A DNA stretch of 63,302 bases, filler included, from Asterionella formosa (lineage: Eukaryota), in NCBI GenBank assembly GCA_002256025.1. It is 21 parts of 21 records of this genome, joined end to end, with 100 filler letters (N's around TTAATTAATTAA, not from the genome) between each part and the next. Parts side by side here need not be neighbours in the genome. Positions count along the whole stretch, not along the records: positions 1,297 to 20,608 come from NKIB01003744.1; 20 more parts are not named here. One strand, given 5' to 3'. The notes under the pieces are model-generated. The model ran no database searches and was not told the DNA's origin. It saw nothing but the letters and a program-made list of their open reading frames with translations. Position 1 is the first letter of the stretch, and every line of letters starts with the position of its first letter. Below are positions 5,747 to 47,300 of this stretch, piece after piece. The position numbers were made by a program, and so were the translations under genes.

Positions 5747-8248
5747 TTAATGATTGCGTCTCGCGAAATACCGAATTACTTTATGGAGGCAAAGACGTTC
5801 GACAGCAAGTGAATATGAAACGAGAGTCTTCTCAGGATATCCCGCAAATCTACCAATGTCAGCAAACCCGCAAAAGGATTAAGAAGAAATGGCTAGGATG
5901 TGGATGAAAAAAAGTTACTTGACATACCGGTACCAGGTACCGTAGCGTTGGTATGTTTTGCTGTGGTTGTGTATACCGGTTTGAATGAAGGAGTTACCTG
6001 TTATACCACAAGGAGGGAACAGAGGTGATTCAAATCGTTGTTGGTAGGAGTAACCTGGTAAGAGTACAAGGTACCAGGCACCTGGTAGAGGACGGTGATA
6101 TGCTTGTACGTGTGTGCACCAGCTATGGTGTGCAGGTGTGCATGCTACATAGCACGGCAATATGAATTATGTTCGAAATATCCTGATGGAACGAATCCTG
6201 TAACTCTCTAAAATAAGATTGGTACATTGCAAGTGAGTGGATGCTCGCTCGCTTCTGGGGAATTTTTTGGCGCGCAGAAATCATTGAGATTGCCGGTTCA
6301 GGTTGCGGCCCCGGCTTAACCCTAGTTTGCAGAAAACGTCGCTAGGGTTGTTAAAACGGCGTGGAACTGCTCAAAGCAATTCCCGCTCGAGCTATCGTCT
6401 TGCCATTCGGGTACTTCTAAGTAATTTTTAGGCTCTAAGTAATTTCTTAAGTACTTTTATTTAGGGGCAATATGGGGCACATCGAATTTTTCGACAATAA
6501 AATTGCCGATTTTAGCATGACAACCAGAATAACGGTAATATCCATAGAGATGGTGCAACAAGCGTAAAACACACGAGAATGATTGTAACATGCAACATCA
6601 ATGAAAATTGAACATGATGTTTGGAGCAACCAAAGTATGAAATGCGATGTAATAAGTAGCATCAAATGAGAAATAGAAAAAATTGTTTTGGGTTAGAAAT
6701 GAAATAAAAAATAAGAGTTCCAATGGAGACGTATGCATTGTGAATCATTGTAGTACTTGCTTACACATGCAACATTGACTTTCCATCACCATACAATGAT
6801 GATCGAAGACCAAAAGAAGAAGAAAAAAGCTCAACCCAATGTAAACCTGCATCGTTATTTAGCGTCAATGGTCTGGTTGCTGCAACCATGCGCATCGTTG
6901 TAGTAGCCTGACACCAGTAGCAGCATTTCCGCCAAAGTCATTCCTCTCCGCGCACCAAATAAGCAACCCTGATCATTCCATTCTGAGCAAGCGTGATCGT
7001 CACGCAACTACGGCACTATTGACTCTCTGTAGCTGAGTATTCATGTAGCTTCTGATACGAACTCGTAGTAGAAATGTAGCAAAGCGCGTTAGTACAAGAA
7101 AAGCATTGCTTGGCGGCAGTATTGACATCATTGCCAACGACTATACAAATCAACAAATACAATCAATAACAATACATCATCAAAGAGTAGTCAACAATAA
7201 ATGCATTGGTTCTTATTTAGATATGTACAATCGAAACAAAACGACAGTGTGTAACGACAAACAACGATGGAAACGATCAAAACAAACCACAGAAGCAATC
7301 AAATCGGAAAGTCGATAAATACGATCCAAAATCCACATTCAGTGTTTCACTGTTGTACTCACCGATCCGCTTCAACTAGCAAAACAAGCAGTTGAGGGCT
7401 TTGCTGCTGTTAACAAATCAATTGGAATAGGATAGGATCATTTGATGATCTATTTTAACATTTAATTTTAGTGAAACAATCATCATCAATTGATTCATCA
7501 TGATGGCAATCCCTAGTCAAATAAATTAAGCTACGACGAAGTGATTCTAATGTTGAAAATGCTAATTTGCTAATATGATTATTAATGTTCTAATGTAGAT
7601 TTATTGAAGGACTTGAAGGCTTGTCCACTTTTCATAACATCTATTCCTGAATCTGGATGTCCTCGAGAGGGCGGCCGTATCTACAATGATGCCGACTACT
7701 GGTACAGCCACCTCAAAACGACAGTCAAATATGATCACCCAAATTGATTATTTGGGCTGGGTGGCCAAATATTTCAAATGTGTCTACATGAAGTTAAGGG
7801 TATGACATGACCACAAAAAAAATATGATGTATCACAATATATATATATATGATAGGAGCAAACTAAATTACTAGTTTCGACAACTTCCATAACTATTTTA
7901 GAAACCCACATAATTTTTGGGGCCAACTAACAATATTTTCTGGCGATGCGAAGAAAAAATAGTTCAGTTGTAATTTCTATAATACACTACCTTTCTCTAT
8001 ATTTGTGTTCACAAATATTCTTAACTCTGACTAGCATAAATTCTGTTTGTTCGCTCCCATTTTATCGTTACTTGGATCACATTAATACTTCAAGGGTAAA
8101 CAAATATATATTTTATTCTTGTGTAATCAATCGCATTTTAGTTTGTTCAGAATCAATATCATGATCGACATATAACAAGCACACAAGTGAGCCCTTCTTC
8201 GACTTCGTGACAAATAAACAATTCATGCTCAGACAATTCCAAAGAATG

Positions 8249-8282
<34 letters not shown>
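8249..8282 (+). repeat. (AAC)n microsatellite
   Basis: About 11 perfect AAC units. Confidence 0.95.
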
Positions 8283-8469
8283 TTCGCGCAGTTACTAATG
8301 ATGACTGAGGCGGGACCAGAGAATCTTGATTCCATATAATTCAGTATCCTGTGTGTGTCTGAATTTGACTGATTCTGAAATTGTATAAGTTCTACAGGAT
8401 GGCGTGAAATGTCATATATATACATTTTTCTAATATATATTAGCATGATCATTATTTCCGTAAAGTCAA

Positions 8470-9600
8470 AAATGAGAAAGTTCTTGATTTTGCAAGAAGA
8501 ACTCTGGATCACGGATGAAGCATGGGAACTCCCTGGCAACATCAAGGCTGTCTCACGTAAATATGTCATTCACGCCAGCCAAATTCGTCGCTGGATAGCA
8601 AGCTTTCATGCTTTCAATACTCGTTATTGAGATGTAGAAGGTTTATTTTCAGATGAGGGGTGTATGTTATTGAAAAAGCAGGCTTTCCATTTAGGGAAGC
8701 CATGGATCAATAGTGCAGCTGAATTTGCTGCGATTGGTCTTGTGTATGATCAGCTTTGTGCTGACGATCGCGCTTGTTTGTTCATGCTGGCTGCTTACTG
8801 CCAAGCTGAAGTGCTTGTTGGGACATGACGTTCGCTTGAACGTCATGCAACAGCGTGTAGCTTGTTGTTACACGGCCTCACAAAACATTGTGTATTGTTG
8901 TATTACGCCTCACAAGGCGCAAAGCACTTGCTATGATGTAATAAGTGTCATGCAGGAGTATCTCCAGTACATAAATGTGTAGTTTCTTGAAGGATTGTAT
9001 CGTTGTCCTAGTAGTATCATAAATATAGATGAGACAAACATTTATTTTGATATTACAGGTGGGCTCACGCTAGCTGATAGTGGTTTCAAGCAAGACAATC
9101 AGCTTATGCACCAATGGCAGCAGCATGCGTTGCACAGCATTGTTGGGTGTATCAAGCAATGTCTGGAGAGAAGCTTCTTGCTCCTCTTGTTGTTTTCAAA
9201 GGAGTACCAGATGACAGGATCCAGAGATAATATAACAATGAACAGTTTGCTTATCCCCCACAGGTGGTTTATTGTTGTCAGGCTAGGAGTGGGTTGATGA
9301 GTCGGGTTTTTAATGCGTATTCGTGACATTTGAAAGCCATGGACAATCAGTCATGGCACCCAACCATCCCACATTCTAATAGATAAGTTTCAGGTGCATC
9401 TGATGGCGATGAGCCTCAATGCAGTAAAGAAAAATTGTGGCACTGCTGTGGACATCATTTGTGAAAATTACACCTCCAAAATATACGTGTTGGATTTTGG
9501 TGTAAATAAGCCCTTTAGGGAATATATTAGGGATGCCTATGAGAAGTGGATGGTCGCAAATCCTCATGGCACAAAGGTGAAACGTCAGAATGGCTTCCCC
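8470..9600 (+). pseudogene. Degenerate pogo/Tigger-type (DDE_1) transposase
   Basis: Fragments in different frames: HTH-like NIKAVSRKYVIHASQIRRW, IINIDETNIYFD (first catalytic D) and VLDFGVNKPFREYIRDAYEKWM. Many stops and frameshifts. Confidence 0.8.
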
Positions 9601-10080
9601 GAATCATCCTAAACAACAGCCAGCTTGAACCTGATAAAATCATCCTGCTTGACCACCTTCCCACAGCATTTGTGTTGCTCACATGAGCGCCGATTATTGG
9701 ATGCATTCAGTCCAAGCAACTCCCAATTGCGGCGACTATTGATTGCTGCTGATTTTGTTGTTGACTGTGATGCCAGCTCAATGAAGTAAAAAATTTATTT
9801 AGCTTGATCAATCACTACATTAACCATTGATAGAACCTTTGGGCCTATTTATGTAAGTAATGTAAGATAGATGATGAGTTTGAAAAACAAACATTAATAG
9901 TACAAATTACCCTAACATTGCTTGGTAATAATGTTTTTGTCTAGCATATTTAGTCCAAAGCATGAATTTTTGTTGGCTCTTGGTTAAAGATCTTCAAACC
10001 TTTGGCTCTCAGTAGTAAGGTGGTACCAAATAGTTGTATGTGATAATTTAACTACTAATGACATCAGTTCATGCCAGCAT

Positions 10081-11278
10081 TTATGTGCCAGGAACAGCAT
10101 CCTGAAGAAGCATTGATACATTGTCAAGAAAGATTTTGATATCTCTATCATGCTCCCCAGATAGGTTATGATTTGCCATTGGAAGATACAAGCAGTTTGC
10201 CACATCACCATGAATGTTCATAGCCACAACCAATCTGTGCATCAAGGCCTTTGTGTTTACAGTCTTTGGAACATACTCATCTGATCCTGAATATGCAACC
10301 AGCAATTTCAAGTTTCTCAGCTTTCCAACATGACTCAATCTCTTTTCCAACTCTTCATCACTTAAGTCTGAACTGAAGAAATCATCTGCACCACCCCATT
10401 CCTGAAGATCCAATAGTCGTTTCGCTGTGATGGGGGCCCAAAATGCATCTCTGGGCATATACTCTGCTTCTTTACCCGAACTCCTAAGATTTAGTGCGTA
10501 CTCAATATTTCGATCATAGTTTGGCTGGAGCATTGCACATTCTCGATCACTAACTGGAGCTTGAAGCACAACAGCCTAAATGTGAAGGCATTTGGTGATT
10601 AGCAACATAGTCCTAAACGGTCGAACGGAGAAGTCCAATCTATTTTCCCATATCGATTAACAAACATACCTTGGTCATCTCAACTAACTCTAATGGGCCG
10701 TGCTGAGTATAATAATGTTAGTCAACGCAATCGCAGGATTATTTCAATCAGTTAGAAGCCGTCGAAAAGCTGAATAAATTATGCAATGGATGCTCCTACC
10801 TTCAGGAAATGAATAGAGTTCTGACAACCAGTTGAGTGCCCGATCAAAGCAAAATTATCAGCACTTCTATGATGCTTCAGATACAGCATGAGGACGCTGT
10901 GTTCATAGGGTAGTGCATCGTAAGAAACATATTTGTGAATCAAGCAAAGACCAGCGGGAAAATAGATATCTTTATGTACCTTAGTTCGCTAGTGTCTCTT
11001 TCAAGGTCACCATTTCCAAAACCCAAGTAGCTCGAACTTAGTATTGGTTGGACGAGCGACCAGCCCAAGGCATGACATGCCTTTTCTAGGGGTTCTGTAT
11101 ACGGTGTGGGGAGCAATCCATCGGAGAGTCCGCCGATCAAGATACACGCCTTTCTCGGCGGAGCAGCGGGGTCCGCGGACGTCTCAAATGCCACCAAATT
11201 ACGACTGTATTGAAATATCGTCCCGTGAAGAGTACCGTAGGAAGACAAGGGAGGGATTGGTGGACATGGCTTCACCAT
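10081..11278 (-). CDS. DUF1749 (UPF0613 / fusarinine C esterase SidJ-like) alpha/beta hydrolase, 4 exons: 11278-10980, 10896-10800, 10702-10670, 10575-10081 (307 aa)
   Basis: GT-AG introns give a 924-nt frame. Motifs are IGGLSDGL, LVQPILSSSYLGFG, nucleophile GHSTGCQ, LQAPVSDRE, DDFFSSDL, SGSDEYVP and ANHNL. Confidence 0.88.
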
Positions 11279-11592
11279 CTTGGTTCGGTTTCGTGGTTGC
11301 ACTTTGTACTGAATATGATATCCAAGATATCAACATGAATTAATAAATGGGATTATAGTTGAGCAAATTAAAATACGGTATAATAATTTACATCAATTTA
11401 TGTTAGCAATATTAAAATGTATACCGTATGTGTTCACTGTCGCGCTACTGTACGTAGTCAACCGTAGTACTGTCCAAATTTGTTTGTATAAAATGAGCGA
11501 GGAGATGATGAATATTCAATCGATCAACCAAGGTCCCAGGGTATCAACTGAAACTTTACGAATGGAAAGCTCTGTTTGTTGCTAACCTAGGA

Positions 11593-12456
11593 TTATCGCG
11601 CTGAACGATCATTTATCCAATCCAGTAAATCCTGTTGAATCTTATCCACCAACGGTGATGGCTCACACAACAAACCGTGTAAAGCGTCATATTGGAGCAA
11701 AGTCTTGTCTGTAGACATTGACTTCTCCATCAATTGAATTGCTCCCTGATTTTTGACAACGACATCTTGCGTTCCAATCATACACAGAAAAGGGAAAGTG
11801 ACTCTATCCATTTTCTTTTGTATTTCACAAGCCAAATCGACACAGGTACAGGCCGACGCAATACGCAATGACTTGCCTGGAATGGATAGCTCGTCATGTT
11901 CACATTCTTGTCGTTTTTCTTCATCTCTGTATTGTTTTTCTGTAGAAGTGGATGAACTAGGGATTACTTGAAGCGTTGGAACAATCCACGACAAGCATTG
12001 GAGGGCAGTATGTTCCAATGGCGAAACCGACAAGGCCAACATGGGTGCCAACAACACTACACCGGCAACAGTATCGGCTAGCTCCAAGGCTGTATGCAGA
12101 GCAATACATCCACCCATACTGGATCCCACCAAAAACAATGGAATATTAGGATAAATTTCTCCTGCATGCTTGGCTACAGTCACGGCGTCGGCAATCATTG
12201 TGGAGTAGGACGGCAGATACCCTCGCATGCCTGGGGACTTGCCGTGGCCCGGAAAATCTGGTGCTATAACGGCGTAGTTATCCTTATTTAGTAACTTCGA
12301 GGCATAGCGAACAGTCGGATACAAGCCATGAGCGAGGAAGCCATGAAAGACTACAACCACCGCTTTGGGTTCCTGTTCTGTCGACCAGGAGTACAAATGA
12401 CATTCCATGCCTCGAATCCAAACTGTTTCGGACTTTGGCATTGTTGTTGCCGTCAT
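11593..12456 (-). CDS. Monoacylglycerol lipase / lysophospholipase-like alpha/beta hydrolase (Hydrolase_4)
   Basis: Intronless 287-aa ORF with VVVFHG, DFPGHGKSPG, nucleophile elbow GSSMGG, D-V-V and HGLLCEP. Confidence 0.9.
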   Translation of the reverse strand: MTATTMPKSETVWIRGMECHLYSWSTEQEPKAVVVVFHGFLAHGLYPTVRYASKLLNKDNYAVIAPDFPGHGKSPGMRGYLPSYSTMIADAVTVAKHAGEIYPNIPLFLVGSSMGGCIALHTALELADTVAGVVLLAPMLALSVSPLEHTALQCLSWIVPTLQVIPSSSTSTEKQYRDEEKRQECEHDELSIPGKSLRIASACTCVDLACEIQKKMDRVTFPFLCMIGTQDVVVKNQGAIQLMEKSMSTDKTLLQYDALHGLLCEPSPLVDKIQQDLLDWINDRSAR

Positions 12457-12843
12457 TGCACTGGTTGATGTGATTGGTGTTACTGGTAGTTGCTGATCGA
12501 TCCACTGGAATGGCTTATGGCGGATGCAGGATGGCTGGTGGAAGGAAGGGAGGTGTCGGGACCATCATCTAGGTACGGAGTCGTACATACATACTGAAGA
12601 AGGTAAGACACGACCGAGGGTGGAACCTGCCTGCGAGTGTGCTTGTTTTCGAGGCATGGGAGGCGCGAGTTGGTTGACCGAACGAGTGGCGCAGGGGCCG
12701 AGTACCGGCAAATTGCGGTTGTTTTGCTTAAACTAACAATTTTATATCGGATAAACAAAGCTAAACTTTTAGTTTCAGCAAAATTACCGCAACTTGCAAG
12801 GTACAAAAGATTACGAGTAGGCAGACTCGATTTTCGCCACTAC

Positions 12844-13085
12844 ATTGCCCTTTCAGTTAACATTGAAAAGCTATTTTAAATAGTTTGTATGTTGGATGCC
12901 AACTAGCCTATTGCCCTTCTTAAAAACATGTGTTGTATATTTCATATCTACAGTTTTTGGATTTCTCACTCCTGCAATTGCCCATCATTTAAAACATATT
13001 TTGTTTTTTCATATCTAAAGTTTTTGGATTACTCAATCCTGCATATGCCCATCATACAACATACTTTGTATAATTCATATGCTCC
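12844..13085 (+). repeat. ~67-bp tandem array (ATTGCCC-headed units); same family as 20462-20608
   Basis: Unit heads at 12844, 12910, 12977 and 13044 match units at 20462, 20531 and 20599. Confidence 0.75.
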
Positions 13086-16038
13086 TTTTTTGATAGCCAA
13101 ACTACCTTCAATATTTTCAATAGCCCCTAGATTTAATTGCCGAAATCGATTGCCATTTATTTACGGGAATTTGATTAATGATAACTATAGCCCATCAATT
13201 GACTGTTGTTTTGCTTAAGGAAAATCGACTGTCGAAATTGGAAGACATTAGGAGGAGCTACATGAAGACAAAAAATGATGGTTTTCTGTAATGTGTCCAT
13301 GGCAATTCCACTATTTACATCCCTGCTATCTTCCAGCATACTCAAATGTATACAAAATCTGTTCAATGATGTCGTCTCAAACATTGAATCTCTATCAAAC
13401 GGATCTGGCTGGTGGCTGTTGGATAATTCGACTTCTTATGGGATTCATATCATCACATCCTGCTTGCTTCGCTCATCACTGTGGATTTTGGCTCCCCTTT
13501 CTGTTGATTTCCGATAGCCTTTCCGGTCAACTCCTTCGCTAGATTTGATATGTATTGATAAATAAATTAATGATTGTTCAAAGGCAAAGCGACCTCAATC
13601 AGTCCTAACTTCTCAAAAACTAAATTTTAAATGAATTTTTTGTTTACTTAAGAAATCGAAACAGTTAAACAGTTCTCTTGTGCTGTTGTTGAAATCGTCA
13701 TTATACCTACTAGGGTCGCTTTCATGACATATTCACGGTGTGAGGATGTCATACCTACATGCTGTTACTTTGCTAAGACACTGCTCAACGCATGCATGTC
13801 ATCCCTAAAGTAATCTGGAGTACCAGGTACCCTGGTACCTGGCTTGTTGTACAGGTGCTATCTGATGCTGGTGATGGGGCAGCACAGCTCTATGTAGTGA
13901 CAGTAAGTTAGTCAGATCCTAATGCCTGTACATACTGGTACCAGCTAGTTAATCTCAATGCAGCAACTCCGTTTTGACCATGACAAATTTATTGGGCTGA
14001 ATTTCTCATCGAAAATTGACTTTGAAGAATTGCTATTTCGTAAGTATATCTAGTAGCCTATCATAGATAAGATAATCGTTCAATAAGAAAAATTTGCAAC
14101 CCATGAATCTTGCTCCTCAAAAGTCCGATAAACGATATAATCGATGAGCAATCATCCGATTCCTCAGTATCCAACAGATCGGATGATGAATTATGAGACT
14201 TTCTGAGATCAATTGAATTGGGAACAGCGATTTTGGCACCACTGCGACGAAGTAGGTATGATGTCACAACATGAATCCCACAAGAAGACAAGTCGTCCAA
14301 CAACCAACCACATCCGTTTGAAGACGAGTCGCTACTGGAGTCATCAAGGAACACATTTTGCTTCAAATGAGGCATGATGGTAAATGATAGTAAATGACAA
14401 TGCATAGCTGGAGCGCGAATTGCCTCAACAATACCCTTCTTGGTGGCTACATGCCTTCTTGTATACATGTGTTCTTGGCTGGTATGGCACTCGTACGGTC
14501 AACCTACTCGCTCCACCTAGCCTCAAACACATTTATACTCGCAGGCATGAGACCACCTCGGGCTTGTTTTGCCTTCATCAACTCTGGGCCTCAAGTCCAA
14601 CAACAATTGCCAGTCTTGCAACATCATTCACCATGTCTGTGGCCGTAATGTAATCAACGATGAGCGCATTTTCGCTGTTCTGGTGTTAAATCCTTCTTTT
14701 TATGTCTATTGACTAACAAAGGGTCAACGAAAAAGGGGCTCCAGAGCAAGCATTCCAATAGGGGCACAATTTTATGAAAAATGCAACAAAAAAGTCAGGT
14801 TCACCTGATTCTAGACTACATAGAAAATATATCATAAACGCCATCATGTTCGGAATAATTTTTAATTAGGAGGGGCTACTAGATGGAGAATTATTGGAGG
14901 TCGTTGCGCTTCATGAGAGGCAGTGACCTGAAAGTGGGTTGCAACTGCTGTGCATACCGGAACAGAGGAGTACATACCAGTGCTACTGTACCCCAGAGCG
15001 TCAAAAAGTGGTACTATGTAAGTACAGGTACTGGGTACCAGCAAGTTGTGGTAATTTTGCTCTCAGCAGATTTAGCGCTCCGAATGTCGTTGTGCCGGCA
15101 ATAGCTTGAAGTGCAGGCCATTCATGAAGTGATTCCAATTCCAAATTGATATGTCTTTATCATATCCGTTTAATACACCATCTCAGCCAACTTGTTGGTT
15201 TGAACTTTATTTTTGCTTTTATCTGATTTAGCAAATTGTAGGAGAAAAAATGACCCCAGAGAAATTTAAGAGTTGACACTAATATTGACAACGAAAATTG
15301 AAGTCACCGATCACTCATTTTTCATTCAATTCAACAAGAAGAGATGCACAATTTTTAAAATGATGATTATGTTACAAGCAAGCAGATTCGACAGTTTCAC
15401 AGTAGCCACACCACAACTAAGACTACGCCTCAAAAAATATCATGAATAACAATCAGAGCAATAAATGTGAAAAAAGTTATTGATATGCTGAGAATAGATT
15501 GATTACCAATTGACAATTTGTACATACAAGTAGTCGTAGAAGCTGACCTCCAGGTACAATGATGTACCATACGGTACTTGATACCAGAAAGTTTCGGTAA
15601 TTTTGCTGAAACTGATTGTTTAGCTATCTTTAGGCCGTTGCTAACCGTTGACCCAAACCAAAACCCAAAAACTTATTTTTGTATTGGTTTTGATTAACTG
15701 ACGCAAAAACGATGCTTTCGGTTTTTGGGAAATCCTAAATGCTGTCAACCACTCATCTACTGTGACGTAGGATGACAAAACCATTTTTAAAAAAGTAAAA
15801 TATTTCTATTAGACTAATTTTATAAATGAAATATTCTGATTCCTATTTGGGAATTAGTTAGTTTTTCCCGCAATTTGAGCGATGCTGCTGTCTTGTTGTC
15901 ATCCAACTACACAACAGTATGTACCATATCTATGATATGATAGAGTCGTAAGTATATACTCCAAGTACATATTACCAGGCACACAACAACCAAAAAAACA
16001 TAACAACATCTGTCGATTGCCAATCAGCATCCTCGATC

Positions 16039-17446
16039 ATGGTGCCAGCACCCCTTCCAGCCAAGAGAGCTCTTTCTCCCTCTGCATGGCAAAAGGAGTT
16101 GCAACGAACTGTTGCTGTTTCTGTTGCTGTTCTGGACAAGGTATCAGGAGGGCCAACCATGACGATCAAAAATCTTCAGAATAAAAAATATCTACTTTAT
16201 CATGGCAATCCATCCGTGAAAGGAAGCATTGGATATTTGGAGTCTTTGCTGAGAAGAAGGGGTCAGTTCGAAGACCTTTGGAGTAGAGAGGAGCTGAATA
16301 CCAACCTCCCAGAAAGAAATGCAGATCGTGTTTCTGCCTTTGATTTGGTCTTAAAAGATTGCTATTCCTGTGATTATCAAAACAGATATGTTGTTGGCTC
16401 TCAATTCACTACAAGATCTCTTGCAGGCACTGGAATGAAAAATATGTCCACTTTAATTACTGGTCGAACTCTATTGAAGATGGCTCAGCATGCCCTGCTG
16501 AATTGGAAGAAGGCCTTAGCATTTGGGTCGCAATTTTTACTCCCTGATGGGACTTTGCCTTCCGGGAAAAATGTTGAAGACTATGACAACCATGTATTAA
16601 ACCATATGTTTCGATATCTGAAGGGTCGAACCAGCTACAGCGACCCAGCAAATGATGAGGATGATGAGGATGAGGAGGAGAAAATCTTGGGTGCTGCTGT
16701 CGTGGCATTGAATGATGATGTTGGGATGCCTGTGGATTATTATTTTTATGGCTGGATTGGATTCAAATTGTTTGGACCATTTGCTAGAGATGAGTTCAAG
16801 TCTATTCTCTTGCTAACAAAGGATTGTGTCTTTGATAATGGCAAAAACGAATCAGCAGGCTGTGCATCAGCTAGAAAATTGGTTGCAGAAGAACGAAGTT
16901 TCAGTCGTTCTTCTGATATGTCAATTGATTGCTCCATTGGAAGTAGAGGCCAGCTGAAAGTCGAGGACGCATCAGTAGAAGCAGCAAAACTGGCTTTATC
17001 AGAAGATTTGATTAACAATTCAATTTTGGGAAATGAATTGTTTGGTCTGAGTCAATCTGCTGCATGCACTCGTGATCGGATGAAAGGTCTTCTGCAACAA
17101 CAGGCTAGATACCCATTGGAACTTAGGATGTTTTGCAAACATCCAAACGAAGCTTGATATTTTAGATGGAAAACTGGAATCTATTACAAATCAGATTGAC
17201 AGTCTCTGTTCTCAGAGAACCAAAAAACGTGAAAACATTGTTGATGAGTATTACTCAAAGAAGAGTAGATTCATGTCATCATCAAGTCCATTGTCAGATG
17301 ATATTCCCCGCTCCAGCCCCTTCTCACCTGTGAATGACTTGGGTATATTAAGTATGACTACTAAAAATCAGCAACTAGGTGACATTATCTCGCCTGTTGC
17401 AAGGCGAGATCCAATTGGCAATTTGGATGACTTTGTCTATGAATGA
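16039..17446 (+). pseudogene. Harbinger accessory ORF (ORF2-like), frameshifted near 17130
   Basis: The 372-aa ORF continues in another frame as a coiled-coil-like tail (NIQTKLDILDGKLESITNQIDSL...DDFVYE, stop 17444-17446). It lies inside the TIR and converges on the transposase. Confidence 0.55.
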
Positions 17447-17584
17447 AAAATGCGTTAGGCCTTCTAACACTTTTGCTTAATTGTCGACTACCCCACTAAA
17501 TAAATACATATGGAATACAACATTATAAAAAATTCAATTACATAAATTTTGAAATTAGATTATAAATTAGACCACCCTGTTCCG

Positions 17585-18872
17585 TCATGTTGCAATAAGA
17601 ATGACGAAAATTTTCTGGTTACAACCACATATTGATCCATCAGTGTGTATGTTGTTATCTTGTCGTTTCAGTTTGGCGACAGTGTGTCCATTTCTTTGTT
17701 TTATAGCTGGCGATAAAAAGAAATGAATCCGTAGAACACCATTTTTTTACTATTATCCAAAGCTCCTCCAGGGACTATATGATCTCCACGCATGAGAAAG
17801 ATGAATTTGAATGGTATGGACAAATGTATTGCATGTTTCCCATCTGAAAAGTTATCCCATACATTTAAGCAGTTCCCTCCTAAAGACAACGACATTATCA
17901 TTCCCCATAGCATAGGTGTTTCCCTTTTGCATTCTGTTGCTGTATAATCTTGGTGTGGCTTCTGAGGTTTTGGGTAGCCATTCTTTCCAGAATTGGTGAA
18001 CAACATAGTGGCAGTGTGTGGTATAACTCTATCGCTATTTCTGGAGACATCATTGGAACCTGGTAGTAACAAGGACTTTATCATGTGCCAAAATGGTTTT
18101 ACATTTGGCAGATCCAGCTTTGAATATTTTTGAAGCTGTCAGTATAATTCTTGAAAGGAAACACTTGCATGGCTTTTCCTTCCATAGTATTTGCAAGTTC
18201 TTTGTATTCTGCAGTTGTTTTGAATGTTTGTTTCAACAAACGAATAGGAGGGTTATAGATTTTCTCAGAAGTACAAAAAGATTTTGCCACATGTAAAAAT
18301 GGATCGTCTTTTTCTTCTTTTCCAAAACACTCATCTGGAAGGAAAGATAAATTGAGGGAAAACACGCATTCTTGTTCAATTCCATCGATAACATACAGGA
18401 AGTTATCTGTTCTCAGAACTGTTTTGATTAACCGTAATGAATCAGTGATGAAACATAGGAAGTCTTCTATCTCTGCTGCATTTGGCGGCATATTGTTGTG
18501 TATCTGATGTAGTCTAAAATCTCGAGGAAAGTGAGTCTTCCATAAAATCATTGCTGGTCCTATATGATTCCGAAATTTCCTTGAAGTTCCAAATGATGTT
18601 TTGTTGTTAAACAAGCCAGACTCTAGGACCACATAGAATTTGTTGAGAACAAAATCCAGGACACTGTCATCTAGCCTCGTCTCCTTGCCTTTGTCATCAT
18701 GATCAAAGTATCTAACCAGTAAGAGTCGTTCCTCAATCTTCTGTTGTCTCTTGAACAGACATGAAATACGCCATAGAAACAAGTTTTTCCTGATTGAACA
18801 ATCTGCAATGATTGGTACCCCCTTCACAACCAATATCGTTCCATTCCTTGTAGCACTCGGAACATTTGCCAT
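17585..18872 (-). pseudogene. Transposon-borne putative 2OG-Fe(II) dioxygenase (DSBH fold), two frameshifts in A-runs
   Basis: ORFs 18099-18872 and 17701-18084 plus a third frame join at A-runs near 18127-18131 and 17742-17748. Motifs are PQKPHQDY (HxD), WGMIMSLSLGGNCLNVW, FLMRGDHIVPGG and NGVLRIHFFL. Confidence 0.6.
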
Positions 18873-19038
18873 TCTTCCCAGTGCTCAATTGATATATTGC
18901 ACTATCGATAGCGTGCGAATGTGAAGAGAAACAAGGAAGCAGAAAGGAATAATGGTCTGTCATCAAAGGATTAAAGAGTGGGTGAGTGCTGGATCGGAAG
19001 CAATGCAGCACCAACATAATCAGTAATATACATTAGAT

Positions 19039-19258
19039 TGGTAGCGCAAAGCTACAGTCTCACAGAACTAACATAGTAATAGGTATAGTTTCTTAGTACC
19101 TGCGTCATGTTCCGACCGGGTATTGAAACAAGGGGCAGAAGGGAATGCTGGTAGGGCAAACCTACAGTCTCACAGTACTAACGTAGTAATAGGTATAGTT
19201 TCACAGTAGCCACATCATGTTCCGACAGGGTATTGAAACAAGGGGATGATGGGAATGC
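19039..19258 (+). repeat. 110-bp tandem duplication
   Basis: 19039-19148 and 19149-19258 both read tggtag.gcaaa.ctacagtctcacag...gggtattgaaacaagggg...gggaatgc. Confidence 0.9.
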
Positions 19259-19353
19259 GGAAATTTTATTCACAGATGTTGGTGCCCAGTAATCTAATTT
19301 AGTTCATGCTCATACTAATTTTCTTTTAGATTCTAAATAGATAATTGTATGGT

Positions 19354-20430
19354 TTAGGGATGATCATTTACATTACGACATGATGGCCAAACAATCTTGT
19401 TTTGTTTCCATAAAATATCAAAATGTTCAATGAGTTTACTCTTGAAGAACTGTAAACTTAAATGCCGGACCACTCGAACTGTATCAACATTCTTTGTTAG
19501 CACTTCAATATTGAAGTTGTCATTTGGATCCGGCACTAAATTGCGAATTGCATCAGGAATTTGTCCATCACCATCATTACCAGGACCCATTCCAGAGGTA
19601 TCAATTGTTCGCAAACTGGCTAATCCAAGTACTGCCGGTCTTGCAAATTCATTTAGTCTTTGAATAGCAAAAGGTGCTTCAGCTCCATTTAATTGGCATA
19701 ATGGTCCTTCCCAGTCACTTAAAACACCATTTTGCCATTGCAGGTCTAAGCCATCAATATCAAGTAACATGTTATGAAATGCGCACCATGTTAGCCAGAC
19801 CTTGTTAGGTTCTGTTACTCCATGTATTCAGATGCCTGATTTTAAAATCCACCAGCGTCCCTTGAGTACTATTCCAAAGGTACATTCCACATCTTTTCTA
19901 AGTGACTCCAGCCATTCAGACCATCTAGTAAGTTCTTGTTCAGGTTCTGGGTTTTTGGTTGGAGGCACTGTTGTAGACCATTTTAGATATCCATTGTCAA
20001 CTATCAAAAAGCATCCACTATACTTTATGGATACAACTGCTCCATTCCGATCTTTTTCTTTAAGCTCAAACTCCACATCTTTTAAGGCATTTGCACCATT
20101 CTGGATGCCTCGAGCAAAAGTATCAAAGTTGATTAATGTTTTATCATTCCATCGACAAGGATGCCCCGTGGTACTAGACAGGATCCTCCGGCGATGAGTC
20201 ACAGTAGAATTATAAGTCCTGGCTGTACAAGGAAGTTTTGAAGATATATGCTGGTTCCGAAGCCGATTGAAGCATCGCTCTATTGACACATGTGTAGCAT
20301 CTGTGGACCCAAGACATCCAGGGAAACCTGCCTGTGTTATTTCAAACATGTGATGATCTGCTTCCAATGGGTTTGTTGGAGTTCTAACCTATTTTTTGTA
20401 AACGATGGTACTTCCAACTTCAATTAAGGC
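19354..20430 (-). pseudogene. PIF/Harbinger DDE transposase (Plant_tran/DDE_Tnp_4 type), C-terminal part, frameshifted
   Basis: GFPGCLGSTDATHV, LIVDNGY, WSEWLESLRKDVECTFGI and the C-terminal FFKSKLIEHFDILW. There is an in-frame stop near 20390 and a frameshift near 19860. Confidence 0.9.
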
Positions 20431-21174
20431 GTGGAAGAATTGCTGAAGGCAATACACGCCCATTGCCCATCATATAAAATGTATTTTGTATATTTCCTAT
20501 CTTCACCTCGAAAATTGCCAAAGGTCCAATATTGCCCATCATTAAAATATATTTTGAAGATTTCCTATCTTCGCATTTTGGCAAGACAACAGACGCCAAT
20601 TGCCCCTCNNNNNNNNNNNNNNNNNNNNNNNNNNNNNNNNNNNNNNNNNNNNTTAATTAATTAANNNNNNNNNNNNNNNNNNNNNNNNNNNNNNNNNNNN
20701 NNNNNNNNTAAATACCAGAAGTTATAGGTAAGCGACTCCGTATCTACGGTGGTCATAGCAACCAGGTAGGTACTGGTATCCTACATAGTTAGTATCTGAC
20801 AGCAACAAAACACCAAGCAAGTTGGTACCAGGTACTATAAAACTATACTACGTGGCACCAGGTGCCTGGTGGTCTATGATTTCCTTTTTTTTTGTATCTT
20901 GAGCAGATACCGAAGCGGCAATTACCGTGTTGCTTTTACCGGTTAATGCTAAACAATACTAGCAGAGAAATATTACAACGTGCCCCAGGTAAGCAAAGTC
21001 ATTCAATAGTGAACAGGCACAGTATGGTGGAAATATGAGTGACCAATACATGTGTACCTGGTACTATGTTGAACAACCCATGCATGGATTTATACCAGGC
21101 ACCCAACCTGGCTGATACCTGGTACCTGGTACCAGGTACCAAACAGCAATACCGGTAGGTAAATCAAGAGGGTA

Positions 21175-28378: not shown

Positions 28379-29296
28379 NNNNNNNNNNNNNNNNNNNNNN
28401 NNNNNNNNNNNNNNNNNNNNNNTTAATTAATTAANNNNNNNNNNNNNNNNNNNNNNNNNNNNNNNNNNNNNNNNNNNNCTGACAACGACCAGAATTTGCT
28501 GACTATGACTAGCAATTGCTGACTGCGACGACTAGTAGAAGTTGCTGATTGGTGAACTGCACAAGCAAACGTATAGGCAGTAGACTAGTATAAGTGAAAA
28601 TTTGGTAAGGCTATTTCGCTGTGAATGTCGGCATATGTATGGTTCCAGGTACTCTTGGTATACCAGTGGTATGTAGGCTTTTCAAAATGAATAATGATGT
28701 CAGAATGACTGTGGACTCGACTTTAAGTCCGATGAGTCAAATGGTGCGTTCCCGTGTGGTTGAAGAAGCTTGCTAACGAGACTGGAAAGATCATGATTAA
28801 TGTCAGCAAAAGAGAACACAGAGAATAGGTTCTCAAATTGTGTTATGTAATGCCAAGAATGGGATTGAAATTGGATTTTAGATTAAGAAGCTCATAAGAT
28901 GAATTAGTTAACAAAGAGTGAGAATTGAAAGAGGAAGATCAACAGGGTGAGTGAGGCTAGCAGCAAAGCATACCGGTAGCTAAGATTACAATGTATAGTA
29001 CCAGGTACAAGAGGTAAGACCTACCAGTGCGTAAGGAGTGTCAATAGAAAAGAGTCCACGGGAAAAGGAGCATTAAGTGAGACCTTCTAACAATAGAGGA
29101 ATAGTCAGTACATTCCTATTCAGCGCTTGTTGATGATATTGATAAGATACTATCTAAAGACAAATTGGCCTGTTAGTGCCCTGTTGTAATGGTAGGTCCA
29201 ACAAATTATGACTTGAGGCCATTCCAGCAGTACTTTTTACTAGGTTAGTATGTATCTACGTAGATCGTACAGCCACGTTGTATCAGTACCCATCAA

Positions 29297-43307: not shown

Positions 43308-43352
43308 TTATTTTTTTGCTGCGTTTCAACATTGAAAAAAGACCATGGCTTA

Positions 43353-44331
43353 GGCCGTTGCTAACGGTGGACCAAAACGCAAACCAAACAGTGTTTTGGT
43401 TTCGGTAACCCTAAAAACGATGCTAACGGGAGTGAAAAACCCAACGCAAACGCATTACGTTTAGGGGATTCCGTGCCCATATCCCAATAAGTTACCCAAA
43501 TGCCGCATTACGTTTAGGTTTTTTTTCCCAAAGTTACCTAAAAAAACAAAAAAAACGTAGGATTCCATATTGACTACTTTTAATGTAGTCACTAGAAACC
43601 CAATAAATATCGTTGCAGAATCACTACACATAGGACGCATCATATGCCGGTACCGGTATTTCATATCTATATACAACAATAGCTATACGGTACCGGTACC
43701 AGGGTACCAGGTACCATGATACCACACTGGCGAGAACAGCAACAACAACAAATCGACTTCGATTTATTATGCGGAACACATAAATCAATCTTCTGTCACC
43801 ACGACTTCATCTTCGTCGTCCTCTTCAACTGAGGCTGCTGGTGGCGGTATCGCTCCGGCAACTGGGACTGGTGCATCGCCACGTCCCATTGTATCAATAT
43901 ATCTGTTAAGTAAGCAGTAGATGTTTTGTTGCAGGTAATGGCGCATGGCCAATTCGTTTGTACCAAGACACCATTGTTTTTGTTTGCGGCATTCAATTCT
44001 GTCTGGCTTGCTGAAACTGCTGTCAGTTGTATTTCATCATGAAGAAGTGTGGTCGGAGTATATATATATACGGCACTACCGGTAAATTGCGGGGAAAACT
44101 AACTAATTCCCAAATAGGAATCATAATATTTCATTTATAAAAGTAGTCTAATAGAAATATTTTCCTTTTTTTATAATGGTTTTGTCATCCTACGTCACAG
44201 TAGATGGGTGGTTGACAGCATTTAGGATTTCCCAAAAACCGATAGCATCGTTTTTCGTCAGTTGACCAAAACCAAAACCAATCCAAAAAAAGTTTTTGGG
44301 TTTTGGGTTGGGTCAACGGTTAGCAACGGCC
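43353..44331. mobile_element. 979-bp Tourist-like (PIF/Harbinger) MITE with a TTA target-site duplication
   Basis: TTA|ggccgttgctaacggtggacc ... ggtcaacggttagcaacggcc|TTA. The right ~245 bp match the Harbinger end at 15633. Confidence 0.92.
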
Positions 44332-47300
44332 TTATTTCTCAAAGATAGTACTCCGAGGTATCTTGTTTGAATGAGTTGTGCCAGGAACGGCATGTAGCGG
44401 CCTAATGTTTCAGGATGCACCCAGCCTTCTTATATGCATACAGTAGCATTTTACACTGGTACAGGTACTGGTACCGGAGTACCATGATACCAGGTACCAT
44501 GGTCATACAAAGTGTAGACGAGTTTGCCTGTAAAATATACGACCAGCAATTTTTTGAAACCCTGATACAGTACAGAGTAGTGCACATTCATTGTCACATT
44601 TATTGCTCATTTGCACATTCTTGGTTGCATCCTCTTCCCTTCGTGCTCACTATCATGATGCCATACATCCCTCTTCATCCTCATGGCATTCCTTTTCAGG
44701 AATTCAATGAGCAGATGATGATGGACAAGGGTACATGCTGGGCATACATTTCTGAAAGTTTGGTCTCTTTTTGTTGGTGTGTTGAACACAAACCAGGATG
44801 GCTTATAGCATATGCCCAGAACAAGGTGATTCTCCTGAGACGGAGGCAGCAGGCATATGTACAAGGGAAGGAAAAATCGTGTTAGAAATGGATTTGTTGA
44901 ATTGATTCAGCATGCTGCAGAGGAAGCCATCATGATGCAGGGTATATGATATATCTCCAGAGCCTTCTCCATTCTTGGACACAAGATTGGCTGTCCAAGA
45001 GCTGCTATGGGAATAAGCAATCATATCTATTCAACTTATTCAGGCTACATCATGGCACAGGCTTCACAGTTAATTTTGAGCAGGAGGAACTTAGCAACCT
45101 TTCGCATGGTTTTTATCGGATTATTGCAGTGGAGAATCATTATGGGTTAGAAGAGATTTTTGAGGTTAAAAGAACCCATGAACAATCAACTATATCACAT
45201 CCTTTGTACTTGGTTCATTGAGTTCAAAATTAATTAAATTTTCATACTAGTATGTTAAAGCTATCCAATAATTGCACTTGTGCCCACTTGAATGCAAACA
45301 ATTAGTACCAGTTTTATTCATCCGTATGGTACAACAACTCCCTCTGTCCAATAACAGTTGCGTTGATTATCGGAGCCCTCAGTGCCAAGCAGCTTTTTTA
45401 GGATGGATTACGTAGACTATATACCATCTTTCTACATAAGGGTTGGCTTTTTGGTCGAAAAAGTGCGTTTTTTAGTTCTTAAGATGTGAGTATAAACTTG
45501 CAATCACTAATTAATTTATTAGCATCTAAATAAATTAATCGAACCCAATTTAGCATACATATATTTTCATTGATCACATACACATGTTTCCAAATGCTGT
45601 TTTACATCGGCCAACCAGTTAAATATTTGTGGGAAATGGAATAATAAAATTCACTATCAATATCATAAAGTATAAAGTGAAGAGAATAAATGTCTTTCCA
45701 TATACTTTCTACAGTTGTAACATTTGCATTGACCATCGGCGTACAGCTGGATATTTAGTTGTTCCAATAGTCAAATGAGGATTCCATCATTTTCTTCCTT
45801 CACATCATCGCCACTTTTCTGGTTGCTCCATCCACAATCAAAGTCAAGTTGCCATTGTTCTACTATTATATCCTACTTCGTATTAGTTCTACTTCCGAAA
45901 TATGCATTGTTAGCTGCGCTGAAGTTGTTCATTGATAATGACGCTTGACAAGATAAACGCTTTTTACATTTGACATGTAAATTGCGCATTTTAATGCTGC
46001 TGCCGTACAACACAGAATCATGTTCGACTGTTGGGAGCAACTAAATAATGTCCAATTAAAATGCAGAAAATTGGCACAAAACCATGCTTACTTAACATTC
46101 ACGGCTTATCAATAAATTCATGATAAAAACAGATAGTGATAAAATGTCGTACGTCATAACATGTTTTATCAGAAACTATTTATTTTTATCAGCCCTTAGG
46201 AAATGACAAGCTTCATTGAAAATATACGAAAATGATGATGACTCGGTCATGGAATCAAGGATCTGCCATGCAACATGGAAGTTGTCGATGATGTGGTTGC
46301 TGATAGAGAGCCGCCTGATGGAGAGACTCTTGGAAACAACAAGAGGACGTCGTGCAAGTTCCACTATCCATCTGGAAGTGCACTACCTGCTAGAAGTAAG
46401 GCCCTGTTTGTGTCCGCCTGCATTTGAAGACAAGATCACTGGTGAAAACGAATGGGCTAGTATGCAAGTCAAGATGGAGAGCATGACTGCCCCAGGAATA
46501 ATGTTTGTGTTCTGGGATAACTATCCAGGTACAGCTCAGAAAATTCGGGTAAGGATCTCAATCATGTTGACAGTGCTACGGTTTTGGAGCTGCTACACAA
46601 TTCCAGTGATGCAGCCGCAAAACGGTGCATGAATATTACAGGATATGAAGCGGCAATTTCAAGGGAATATCTGAGAAATTTACTGTTTCCGGTGCTGCGA
46701 CTCTTGCGATATTTTCTCTACCTGGTGCTCTTCAATTGTTTGCTTTGGAAACATGTTCTCTTCTTCTCCAGCTCTTTTTCCTTTTGTTTCATTTGTTCAA
46801 CATTGCTGATTCTTTCGCTGGGCGCCGTGTTCGTGACCATTCGCTGAGCCCTTTTCGTCATGGTGAACCGGTTGTTTTTGCCAAAATTTAACTGTCAGTA
46901 CCCGGAAGTAGCCGTAGCTATACTACTAAATCTTATTTTGATTCTTTGCTGTAGTACTTTACTATTCTTTATTCTGCTCGCCTTTTTACTTGGCTTATAA
47001 GTATCATTTATCACTTTTTGAAATTGTTGTCTTATAAATATATTACAAATATGCCTTACTTAAGTCTAGTAAAAGGGAAATCTCACCATATTCCTGGACC
47101 CTTTATGTGAAATCAGTCAAATTTAGTCATGGCAGTGATCATTGGCTGGGGGGGTCCAGGAAGCTGAAGTAGACACTAGGCAAAGTAAGCAAAACCTTTC
47201 TCACTTTGCTTACTTTTGCTTACCGATCATTTTCATTTGCTTTTTTTAAAATTTCCCCACGTTTTGACATTTTCACTTTTGGAATAAAATTAGCATAAAG

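Follow-up and report, generated by a model that had tools for sequence, protein, structure and literature searches.

Results

Three genes in a PIF/Harbinger element

The window, by which we mean the whole stretch of 63,302 nucleotides of Asterionella formosa DNA that was analysed, holds one copy of each of three genes of a DNA transposon, the third of them as a dead copy (Table 1). The element with this third gene is a PIF/Harbinger transposon, present at high copy number in a freshwater alga. Its transposase matches Plant_tran (E=2.3e-10) and DDE_Tnp_4 (E=1.3e-7) of Pfam over 19828-20388 on the minus strand, both passing the family cut-offs, and the reading frame resumes unchanged past the in-frame stop codon. 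The terminal inverted repeat (TIR) begins with GGCC and the target duplication is TTA. This combination of TIR and 3-bp TTA duplication, characteristic of PIF/Harbinger, is found at both ends of a miniature non-autonomous relative (MITE) and at the left end of the large element; the contig stops at 20608, before the right end and its TIR.

Table 1. Positions of the element, its genes, the lesions of the third gene and related features in the window
Feature	Position	Strand	Basis or remark
Left end of the element: TTA, then terminal inverted repeat GGCCGTTGCTAAC	15630..15645	+	exact TIR match at 15633, TTA directly 5'
First gene of the element (presumed accessory ORF)	16039..17446	+	two frames, 15952-17157 and 17084-17446
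Third gene, decayed 433-codon copy, putative Fe(II)/2OG dioxygenase-like	17560..18872	-	collinear with intact protein P0020
Lesion 4: one extra A, frameshift	17611..17614	-	public contigs; P0020 and L001 alignments
Lesion 3: A7 run one base short, frameshift	17742..17748	-	intact copies, L001
Lesion 2: extra in-frame His codon (17779-17781); distal His to Pro (CCT, 17770-17772)	17770..17781	-	
Lesion 1: two surplus bases, frameshift	18131..18132	-	public contigs, L001 alignment
Two tandem copies of a 110-bp unit	19039..19258	no strand	spacer between transposase gene and third gene
PIF/Harbinger DDE transposase, 3' two-thirds only	19354..20388	-	in-frame TGA at 19828-19830; 5' part not in the window
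Artificial linker: 44 N, TTAATTAATTAA, 44 N	20609..20708	no strand	not genomic
Non-autonomous relative (MITE), 979 bp	43350..44334	no strand	same TIRs, TTA on both sides

In the MITE the TIR matches lie at 43353 (plus) and 44319 (minus), with inverted arms of 46 nt. Over its first 244 nt the large element matches the right end of the MITE (43353-44331) at 92% identity, and the other MITE end has no match within 15000-20608. A search of the window sequence found no second TIR or MITE terminus between 15633 and 20608. Backward-jumping joints of the 110-bp tandem unit are also seen in contigs of sequencing run X1. Neither Myb/SANT nor any other Pfam family was detected in the two frames of the first gene at E≤10, and the DNA-binding partner expected of Harbingers is therefore unaccounted for. 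Divergent Myb-like domains can evade HMMER. No Rfam RNA family was found within the window. The observed/expected ratio of CpG is 0.49 in the element as against 0.75 and 0.69 in its flanks, with GpC at 0.97 as control, and this low value is consistent with the element being a methylated target.

Reconstruction of the third gene

Three frames on the minus strand, 18099-18884 (261 aa), 17701-18138 (145 aa) and 17585-17746 (53 aa), are present exactly as an earlier sequence-only reading of this DNA had given them, including the peptide strings it quoted. Its proposal that they are pieces of one gene of about 430 codons is borne out by intact public proteins of 433 aa, which are collinear with the window from the methionine at 18872 to the end (tblastn). 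At least three such proteins (P0018, P0020 and P0024) occur among the 15 members listed for a cluster of 82. All three read through every break of the window copy, which agrees with the intact protein at 230/248 positions across residues 1-246 (tblastn).

As had been proposed, the window copy is decaying: it contains three frameshifts (a gain of two bases at 18131, a loss of one from the A-run 17742-17748 and a gain of one at 17611), an extra histidine codon and a His to Pro replacement. The same reading had explained the frame changes by one missing A at each of two junctions. This holds for the second junction, where the A7 run lacks one A; the first junction owes its shift to two surplus bases instead, a correction of equal effect on the frame. 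The third frameshift had been overlooked. With the extra A in 17611-17614 taken into account, the real C-terminus is NQKFSSFLLQHDGTGWSNL and the stop lies at 17560-17562, not at 17585.

Public contigs from four runs bear on two of these lesions. The two bases at 18131 are absent in 503/503 of the depth in run X20, 440/440 in X19, 13.7/13.7 in X12 and 89389/210895 in X1; the base at 17611 is absent in 204/245, 157/157, 13.7/13.7 and 23312/132579, respectively. Across the first junction the intact copies read DSLKYSKLD. The broken reading at the A7 run recurs in two further proteins (P0015 and P0025). In the distal part of the protein the intact copies have MRGDIVHGGALDNSKKNGALRIHFYLSP where the window has MRGDHIVPGG, and the window's GDHIVPGG aligns with GD-IVHGG in both P0020 and L001, the latter being a separately decayed copy. 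An intact frame with DxVHGG, that is with histidine at the place of the window's proline, had been predicted, and GDIVHGG is what the intact copies contain.

Conserved residues

The intact protein has a largely helical N-terminal half, some 250 aa long, followed by a C-terminal domain of some 180 aa. A divergent subfamily (P0041 with 503 aa, P0042 with 497 aa, P0043 and P0036) shares 28-34% identity with it over the whole protein and 39-41% in the C-terminal part; its members are multi-copy and fragmented, resembling transposon genes. When five sequences from the two subfamilies are compared over residues 229-433, 64/205 columns are invariant. The invariant constellation of the C-terminal domain is PH(304)xD(306)Y ... 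GDxxH(364)GGALDN ... ALR(378)xH. The histidine, aspartate, distal histidine and arginine that had been named in advance (H304, D306, H364 and R378) are all among the columns invariant in 5/5 sequences (hypergeometric P=0.009), including those of the subfamily at about 40% identity. R378 is the sole invariant arginine of six in residues 229-433.

At the level of sequence, the HxD/E...H facial triad is present in the intact copies, the window copy having proline at 364. R378, 14 residues after H364, falls in the range (about 10-20 residues past the distal histidine) of the Arg or Lys that contacts the C5 carboxylate of 2-oxoglutarate (2OG). HxD...H...R is a short pattern, and this counts against the dioxygenase reading. 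Cysteine proteases are often captured by transposons; no cysteine is invariant in residues 229-433 of the five sequences, which argues against a protein of this kind. Among 1.84 billion representatives no relatives beyond the two subfamilies were found: the 10 matches at E≤0.001 all belong to this family, and a search with a wider alignment gave 54 matches at E≤1 and no new relatives.

Copies elsewhere, transcripts and selection

In run X1, 42,438 contig pieces align to the element with ≥85% identity, and in each of the four runs (X1, X12, X19 and X20) every one of its 30 bins has cover. The third ORF is as repeated as the neighbouring genes in X1 and X12 (thousands of pieces). It is also physically joined to its neighbour in other copies. 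Record 12 of X12 (841 nt) spans 17321-18165 and links the third ORF to the 3' end of the first gene, and L001, from a different record, extends from the ORF across the spacer into the 3' end of the neighbouring gene at about 97% identity. The view that the ORF is a conserved, multi-copy gene inside a PIF/Harbinger element is supported. A search for related loci gave one short locus on a metagenome contig (L001) and none in prokaryote genomes or viral contigs.

RNA libraries from two studies contain the third gene: contigs of X20 (polyA) and, in the other study, of X19 (a lake metatranscriptome) extend over the ORF and are unbroken at 18131 and 17611. Contig cover from the RNA libraries is little or nil over about 18953-19450, which we do not take as evidence for separate transcripts. 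Comparison of the window copy with L001 over 302 codons gives a dN/dS of 0.48 (Sd 14, Nd 26; binomial P=0.028).

Tests of the dioxygenase assignment

Searches of Pfam, NCBIfam and PHROGs with up to six family members gave no usable family at E≤10. SPACA9, Fn3 and phrog_3522 (E=0.2) appeared as matches to single members and were rejected as clearly spurious. The comparison with TET/JBP proposed earlier did not succeed: Tet_JBP (PF12851) was not detected in any of the six members (hmmscan, Pfam, E≤10), and none of the 301 genomes searched yielded TET/JBP sequences for a profile. PDB sequences gave no match at E≤10 with either a single sequence or a profile as query. AlphaFold2 gave no usable model, mean pLDDT being 30.7 with an alignment of 6 rows and 33.2 with 25 rows; the second, low-confidence model would place four short strands over ILLEI, KKFFL, VHGGA and ALRLHW.

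The C-terminal profile was compared by hhalign with eight cupin or 2OG families and two unrelated families. Target profiles were built from prokaryote loci (PF13640, PF05721, PF23169, PF13532, PF03171, PF02668, PF13621, PF07883, PF00903 and PF00583), excluding L189 (stops), L261 (partial) and the PhyH fragments L140 and L143. None of the ten comparisons was significant, those with AlkB and PhyH included. The best value was that for PhyH (P=0.031 with 12 sequences, 0.083 with a profile of 41), as against 0.097 for the reversed query and 0.21 for the N-terminal half as controls. AlkB (PF13532, 2OG-FeII_Oxy_2) gave P=0.31 with a profile of five sequences and no Pfam match. As a check of power, 3/6 pairs of true 2OG families found each other at >75% probability. 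The best local match, non-significant and confined to the motif around the distal histidine, puts H364 on that histidine of PhyH, a weak match to Cupin_8 puts H304 and D306 on the HxD of that family, and in a weak, low-threshold alignment with PhyH both motifs are collinear.

Language-model neighbours in the Atlas were sought for the whole protein and for residues 255-433. With the whole protein the top match (0.95) is named '2OG-Fe(II) oxygenase family protein', and every neighbour with a family belongs to PhyH, HalD or 2OG-FeII_Oxy_3. With residues 255-433 the top matches score 0.90 and lie in clusters of which 29% and 26-38% of members are 2OG-FeII_Oxy_3 or HalD. The recognition value is 2248, below the mark of 2300 under which, according to the tool, a high score is weak evidence. 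The neighbours by themselves point to 2OG-Fe(II) oxygenases as a lead. A dioxygenase identity of the third gene product is plausible.

Discussion

Our best explanation is that the locus holds a dead copy of the element's third gene, and that this gene encodes a very divergent Fe(II)/2-oxoglutarate dioxygenase which serves the element. We give this explanation as a whole a probability of about 0.55. Its parts differ in strength. The ORF is very probably a functional gene borne by the element. That its product would be an Fe/2OG oxygenase is somewhat favoured, and an anti-silencing role is a doubtful proposal. Read from the left TIR at 15633, the element would be ordered as an uncharacterised gene (plus), the 433-codon gene (minus) and the DDE transposase (minus). 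In the protein, the iron ligands would be H304, D306 and H364, with R378 contacting the C5 carboxylate of 2OG. The most plausible service to the element would be an escape from silencing, through oxidation of a methyl mark carried by DNA, RNA or chromatin. The double-stranded beta-helix fold, the cofactors, the substrate and the benefit to the element are what we infer from these data.

The alternative that survives best, although we consider it rather unlikely, is a real, selected third gene with another or a novel fold, such as a metal enzyme of another kind or a transposase partner that binds DNA or chromatin, in which HxD...H...R would be coincidental. It would account for the lack of a significant family, PDB or profile-profile match, for the low pLDDT of both models and for a recognition value under the tool's own mark; moreover, the first gene leaves the place of the Harbinger DNA-binding partner vacant. 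Coincidence would, however, have to cover four residues that were named beforehand and proved invariant, as well as a histidine that was predicted and then found in intact copies. It would also have to explain why each Atlas neighbour with a family is a 2OG, PhyH or HalD oxygenase, and why the weak hhalign matches coincide precisely with the motifs that bind metal in PhyH and Cupin_8. The missing invariant cysteine speaks against one such fold, the cysteine protease.

DNA transposons do capture host genes, and the ORF could accordingly be a captured passenger that is amplified with the element and plays no role in its life cycle. One X1 contig joins 17431 to 19368 and skips the whole ORF cassette, and many copies of the third gene are broken or truncated, as would suit a passenger. 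We regard this reading as improbable, since several copies, and a multi-copy subfamily at about 30-40% identity, retain full-length frames, dN/dS has the value given above, and relatives were found neither outside the two subfamilies among the representatives searched nor in prokaryote or viral contigs. It is highly improbable that the ORF is foreign to the Harbinger, being instead a host gene, or a nested insertion of other origin, that happens to sit between the two transposon genes at this one locus: the contig stops short of the element's right end and no contig outside the window was seen to span the 5' end of the third ORF and the transposase, but the ORF is repeated like its neighbours and is linked to the adjacent element gene in L001 and in the X12 record, and no TIR or MITE terminus lies inside the element.

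Under the preferred reading, that of an element-borne dioxygenase, a wider proposal may be put forward tentatively: a hitherto unrecognised clade of Fe(II)/2OG dioxygenases outside Pfam might be the standing third gene of PIF/Harbinger elements in diatom-like algae. It would have been recruited independently of the fungal TET/JBP captures and would act against silencing on a methyl mark of nucleic acids or chromatin, as a second, convergently evolved transposon 'eraser' in another eukaryotic supergroup. Transposons equipped with an enzyme that modifies DNA or chromatin illustrate how mobile elements counter silencing by their hosts. If the protein were an active Fe/2OG oxygenase, the phenomenon would extend to algae, and a new oxygenase clade would be at hand with 5mC, 6mA, T, RNA m6A and histone methyl-lysine as candidate substrates. 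Transposon silencing in diatom-like algae would then become readily accessible to study through the intact 433-aa copies, the high-copy element and its MITEs. Should the protein prove not to be an oxygenase, the Harbinger family still has a conserved third gene that calls for explanation.

Comparison with known systems

The clear cases of transposon-borne dioxygenases so far are TET/JBP genes in fungal DNA transposons. TET/JBP transposons of the Kyakuja/Dileera/Zisupton type were reportedly first described in 2014. A search of journal articles found none on Harbingers of diatoms or further algae whose extra gene is oxygenase-like but not TET.

Canonical PIF/Harbinger elements have two genes, a Myb-like ORF1 and the transposase (PMC2836001). 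The element described here shares with them a DDE_Tnp_4 transposase, TIRs starting with GG, the 3-bp TTA duplication and associated MITEs. It differs from the elements in that account by its third, 433-codon gene and by a non-transposase gene without a Myb/SANT match. The premise of the sequence-only reading, that typical Harbingers encode nothing further, is outdated, as PHISTA, a group of Harbinger-like transposons of rust fungi, encodes a TET/JBP dioxygenase plus a third protein (Kojima 2025, PMC12730594).

PHISTA is also a close parallel. Both are DDE transposons of the PIF/Harbinger superfamily with three genes, for a transposase, an Fe/2OG dioxygenase (putative in our case) and a protein without Myb/SANT, and for both an escape from methylation-based silencing is a proposal. 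The PHISTA dioxygenase is a recognisable TET/JBP protein, the target duplication is TA and the host a fungus, whereas the protein described here matches no Pfam family, Tet_JBP included, and belongs to an algal element with a TTA duplication. Among the fungal TET/JBP elements presented in PMC12730594, Kyakuja/Dileera/Zisupton, Plavaka and others resemble our element as DNA transposons with a gene of their own for a putative nucleic-acid oxygenase; they differ from it in transposase superfamily, host kingdom and dioxygenase family, the last being undetectable here. HarbingerS of Phytophthora, cited in PMC12730594, is likewise an element of the Harbinger clade in a stramenopile with an extra gene for a chromatin-type enzyme; by that citation its extra gene encodes a SET histone methyltransferase, whereas ours is oxygenase-like.

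Outside DNA transposons, orchid Ty3/Gypsy retrotransposons reportedly carry an AlkB-type m6A demethylase domain (PMC9289625). They too are mobile elements with an acquired 2OG/Fe(II) oxygenase domain, putative in our case; there, by the same account, a recognisable AlkB is fused into the retrotransposon polyprotein, whereas AlkB reaches only the hhalign value given above with the protein described here. Among enzyme families, phytanoyl-CoA dioxygenase (PhyH, PF05721) comes nearest to view: H364 of GDxxHGGxxDNS aligns with the distal histidine of HgSxxNxs, non-significantly, and one PhyH cluster is among the Atlas neighbours. HMMER gives no match to PhyH, and the distance from histidine to arginine is about 14 as against about 11-12 in the PhyH profile. 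Harbinger-like transposons bearing TET/JBP are already known in rust fungi (PMC12730594), and the algal element would be a variation on that theme.

Results

Three reading frames are the remains of one gene

Between the plus-strand gene and the transposase lie three minus-strand frames, arranged head to tail, which encode exactly the peptides quoted in the sequence-only reading and have no Pfam match at E<=1. Used as query in a word-indexed search (E<=0.001, 273 candidates), the 261-aa piece matched 12 public proteins; all are 80-92% identical and are therefore other copies of the same repeat. The best match represents a cluster of 82 sequences, and three of the 15 members listed (P0018, P0020 and P0024) are 433 aa long; tblastn aligns them collinearly with the window, starting at the ATG at 18872 and reaching the end. 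In these proteins ...NYTDSLKYSKLDLPNV... spans the first break of the window copy and ...LDNSKKNGALRIHFYLSP... the second. The three frames are pieces of one gene, and its copy in the window is dead. The earlier proposal that the frames join into a single gene thus stands, as does the decay of this copy, which differs from the intact 433-aa copies by frameshifts and His364->Pro; the list of lesions given then had missed the extra A at 17611-17614. The gene in fact encodes the C-terminus ...NQKFSSFLLQHDGTGWSNL and has its stop codon at 17560-17562. At the distal-histidine site the window has MRGDHIVPGG and P0018, P0020 and P0024 have MRGDIVHGG, so that the DxVHGG predicted for intact copies is indeed present there.

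Two further proteins, P0015 and P0025, share the broken reading of the window past the A7 run. Hence this lesion has either been passed on among dead copies or arises repeatedly at the homopolymer. Seven of the 12 first-round matches (P0003, P0005, P0006, P0008, P0009, P0010 and P0012) follow the first ~130 residues of the gene, continue with ...PMNYIQTGDH.LFQYFQLLTG and then stop; their breakpoint, at ~18478 (-) in the window, is matched by loose ends of sequencing-run contigs at 18477 (run X12) and 18510 (run X20). This recurrent type, a chimeric or deleted derivative, has lost all of the gene but its 5' third.

Features of the window. Lesions are defined by comparison with P0020, the metagenome copy L001 and contigs of four sequencing runs.
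Feature	Position	Strand	Remark
HA (helicase-associated) domain repeat protein	1322-2530	-	ordinary-looking host gene
Hydrolase_4 alpha/beta hydrolase	11593-12564	-	ordinary-looking host gene
Plus-strand element gene (earlier accessory ORF)	15952-17446 (gene from 16039)	+	two frames, ~470 codons
Frame 3 of third gene	17585-17746	-	stop-to-stop, 53 aa
Lesion: run with one extra A	17611-17614	-	
Frame 2 of third gene	17701-18138	-	stop-to-stop, 145 aa
Lesion: A7 run with one base missing	17742-17748	-	
Lesion: His364->Pro	17770-17772	-	CCT
Lesion: extra in-frame codon	17779-17781	-	
Frame 1 of third gene	18099-18884	-	stop-to-stop, 261 aa
Lesion: two surplus bases	18131-18132	-	
Tandem repeat in spacer between transposase and third gene	19039-19258		two copies of 110-bp unit, 87% alike
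GST_C+HIT protein	34729-35493	+	ordinary-looking host gene
DEAD-box helicase fragment	36007-36735	-	ordinary-looking host gene
MITE (non-autonomous, TIRs as in large element)	43353-44331		979 bp; TTA on each flank

The gene is carried by a repeated Harbinger element

The region 19828-20388 (-) matches the PIF/Harbinger transposase families Plant_tran (E=2.3e-10) and DDE_Tnp_4 (E=1.3e-7) of Pfam. This transposase copy is also dead: it lacks its 5' part and is interrupted in frame by a TGA (19828-19830). The terminal inverted repeat (TIR) GGCCGTTGCTAAC stands at 15633 (+), directly preceded by TTA, and recurs twice, in opposite orientations, at the ends of the MITE (43353 and 44319); a 3-bp TTA duplication is typical of PIF/Harbinger. 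The left end of the large element is 92% identical to the right 250 nt of the MITE. The other MITE end was found nowhere across 15000-20608, so that the interval from the left TIR to the transposase contains no element terminus. Since the contig ends at 20608, the right end of the element is missing from the window; it should be resembled by the left part of the MITE. The order is thus left TIR, plus-strand gene, 433-codon gene (-), spacer and transposase (-). Harbingers are expected to have a DNA-binding partner; the plus-strand gene has no Myb/SANT and no other Pfam match at E<=10.

Separate contigs were joined artificially to form the window, so that parts on either side of a linker are not genuine neighbours. 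The linkers (44 N, the 12-mer TTAATTAATTAA, 44 N) lie at 1197-1296 and 20609-20708; more follow at intervals of about 1295 nt up to 28478 and resume between 47773 and 62108. They delimit chunks of 1194-1196 nt as well as the long stretches 1297-20608 and 28479-47772. The second of these stretches holds a further mobile element, with an RVT_2 (Copia-type) reverse transcriptase at 30496-31557 (-; E=6e-12).

Contigs of four public sequencing runs were aligned to 15633-20608 at >=85% identity. The fitting pieces numbered 42,438 in X1, which is probably from the source sample, 161 in X12 (another study), 91 in X20 (polyA RNA, sample shared with X1) and 70 in X19 (lake metatranscriptome), and covered 30 of 30 element bins in X1, X19 and X12 and 29 of 30 in X20. 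By this cover the third gene is as repeated as its neighbours and is no single-copy host gene. Record 12 of X12 (841 nt) corresponds to 17321-18165, from the 3' end of the plus-strand gene into the third gene. L001, a differently broken copy on a 1258-nt metagenome contig with 7-nt and 1-nt insertions of its own, runs from codon 123 over the stop and a spacer into the 3' end of the plus-strand gene at ~97% identity. Among the contigs listed, none bridged the 5' end of the third gene and the transposase. In one contig of X1, 17431 is joined to 19368: the entire 1936-bp cassette is missing, and the 3' end of the plus-strand gene directly meets that of the transposase gene; as a lead, this contig may derive from the element by deletion or belong to a relative with two genes. 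The copy number of the 110-bp unit seems to vary, judging from 'goes back' joints in X1. Direct repeats of 30 nt and a palindrome lie within the segment 20447-20608, where three runs have many loose ends (at 20462-20465 and 20500-20583). The segment looks like an independent short repeat of very high abundance that interrupts or abuts the transposase 5' region just ahead of the contig end.

RNA-library contigs from two studies cover the third gene; being contigs they carry no strand or level, and DNA carry-over is possible. They have the unbroken state at 18131 (503/503 in X20, 440/440 in X19) and at 17611 (204/245 and 157/157, respectively). That the gene is transposon-borne, conserved and multi-copy is well supported, and the data show that this Harbinger family has a third gene which is conserved and looks expressed.

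The four predicted active-site residues are invariant

An exhaustive HMMER search of 1.84 billion representatives with the 145-aa piece returned only 10 proteins at E<=0.001. Two profile rounds (71 matches at E<=0.01 among 3187 candidates; 54 at E<=1 among 5560) added a second subfamily, then nothing new: P0041 (503 aa), P0042 (497 aa; cluster of 20, lengths very unequal), P0043, and P0036, with three fragments of a single 31.8-kb contig in its cluster. Identity of this subfamily to P0020 is 28-34% over the whole protein and 39-41% in the C-terminal part. No relatives were found in prokaryote genomes or viral contigs. Across all five complete sequences 64 of the 205 columns of P0020 residues 229-433 are invariant, among them H304, D306, H364 and R378 (hypergeometric P=0.009), the four residues named beforehand from the window alone. 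R378 is the sole invariant arginine of six in this region. The window copy and L001 differ by 14 synonymous and 26 non-synonymous changes in 302 codons, a dN/dS of 0.48 (binomial P=0.028), which fits a divergence partly under selection on the protein.

Searches for a dioxygenase fold

Up to six family members searched against Pfam, NCBIfam and PHROGs at E<=10 gave no family, only stray meaningless single-member matches, and PDB sequences gave no match to a single sequence or profile query. AlphaFold2 models were unusable, with a mean pLDDT of 30.7 (6 aligned rows) and 33.2 (25 aligned rows). As a stand-in for HHpred, the C-terminal profile was compared by hhalign with eight cupin or 2OG and two unrelated families, with target profiles built from prokaryote genomes; of 301 genomes searched for TET/JBP, none gave sequences for a profile. 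PhyH scored P=0.031 (0.083 with a richer 41-sequence profile), Cupin_2 0.089, Cupin_8 0.10, and AlkB, 2OG-FeII_Oxy, 2OG-FeII_Oxy_3, HalD and TauD 0.27-0.33; the unrelated glyoxalase and acetyltransferase scored 0.42 and 0.64. Controls went down to P 0.097 for the reversed query and 0.21 for the N-terminal half, and true 2OG families recognised each other at >75% probability in three of six pairs. The test is therefore non-significant, with moderate power. Within the weak matches H364, in GDxxHGGALDNS, falls on the PhyH distal His (HgSxxNxs) and PH304xD306 on the Cupin_8 HxD; a low-threshold PhyH alignment has both motifs collinear. In the protein-language-model Atlas, the first neighbour of the whole protein (0.95) is named '2OG-Fe(II) oxygenase family protein', and PhyH, HalD and 2OG-FeII_Oxy_3 are the only families among the neighbours; the recognition value of 2248 is below the tool's mark for high scores as strong evidence. 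First neighbours of residues 255-433 (0.90) belong to clusters partly with 2OG-FeII_Oxy_3 or HalD.

Discussion

Taken together, the weak profile matches, the Atlas neighbours, the distal histidine predicted and then found, and the invariance test make a dioxygenase fold plausible and tip the balance slightly towards a 2OG/Fe(II) dioxygenase (probability about 0.55-0.6). Such a C-terminal domain would bind Fe(II) via H304, D306 and H364 and 2OG via R378, and the helical N-terminal half would target or regulate it. The product might then benefit the element by oxidising a methyl mark of DNA, RNA or chromatin; an anti-silencing role is conjecture. In the element (15633-20440) CpG has an observed/expected ratio of 0.49, as compared to 0.75 in 3591-15632 and 0.69 in 28479-47772, with GpC at 0.97 in the element and ~1 in all stretches. 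The low CpG would fit a methylated target, in a small sample and with other causes possible.

The sequence-only reading had taken it that typical Harbingers encode only a DDE transposase and a Myb/SANT-like partner. In Kojima 2025 (PMC12730594), seven TET/JBP-encoding DNA-transposon lineages are described from rust fungi, among them the Harbinger-like PHISTA, whose third protein is without Myb/SANT, and HarbingerS of Phytophthora is cited as encoding a SET methyltransferase. With PHISTA and HarbingerS already described, that premise is out of date. By that paper's own account, the function of the rust-fungal dioxygenases is not validated. In the literature listings searched, no element of this kind is described from algae. 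Compared to the rust-fungal TET/JBP transposons, the third gene reported here represents an orphan family, unrecognisable as TET/JBP, AlkB or PhyH; its element, unlike PHISTA, is a canonical TTA-duplicating Harbinger, and its host is an alga. The HA-domain repeat protein at 1322-2530 and the labels of the runs (freshwater or algae) would be in keeping with a diatom. If the dioxygenase fold is true, it would be another variant of the already known carriage of dioxygenases by transposons.
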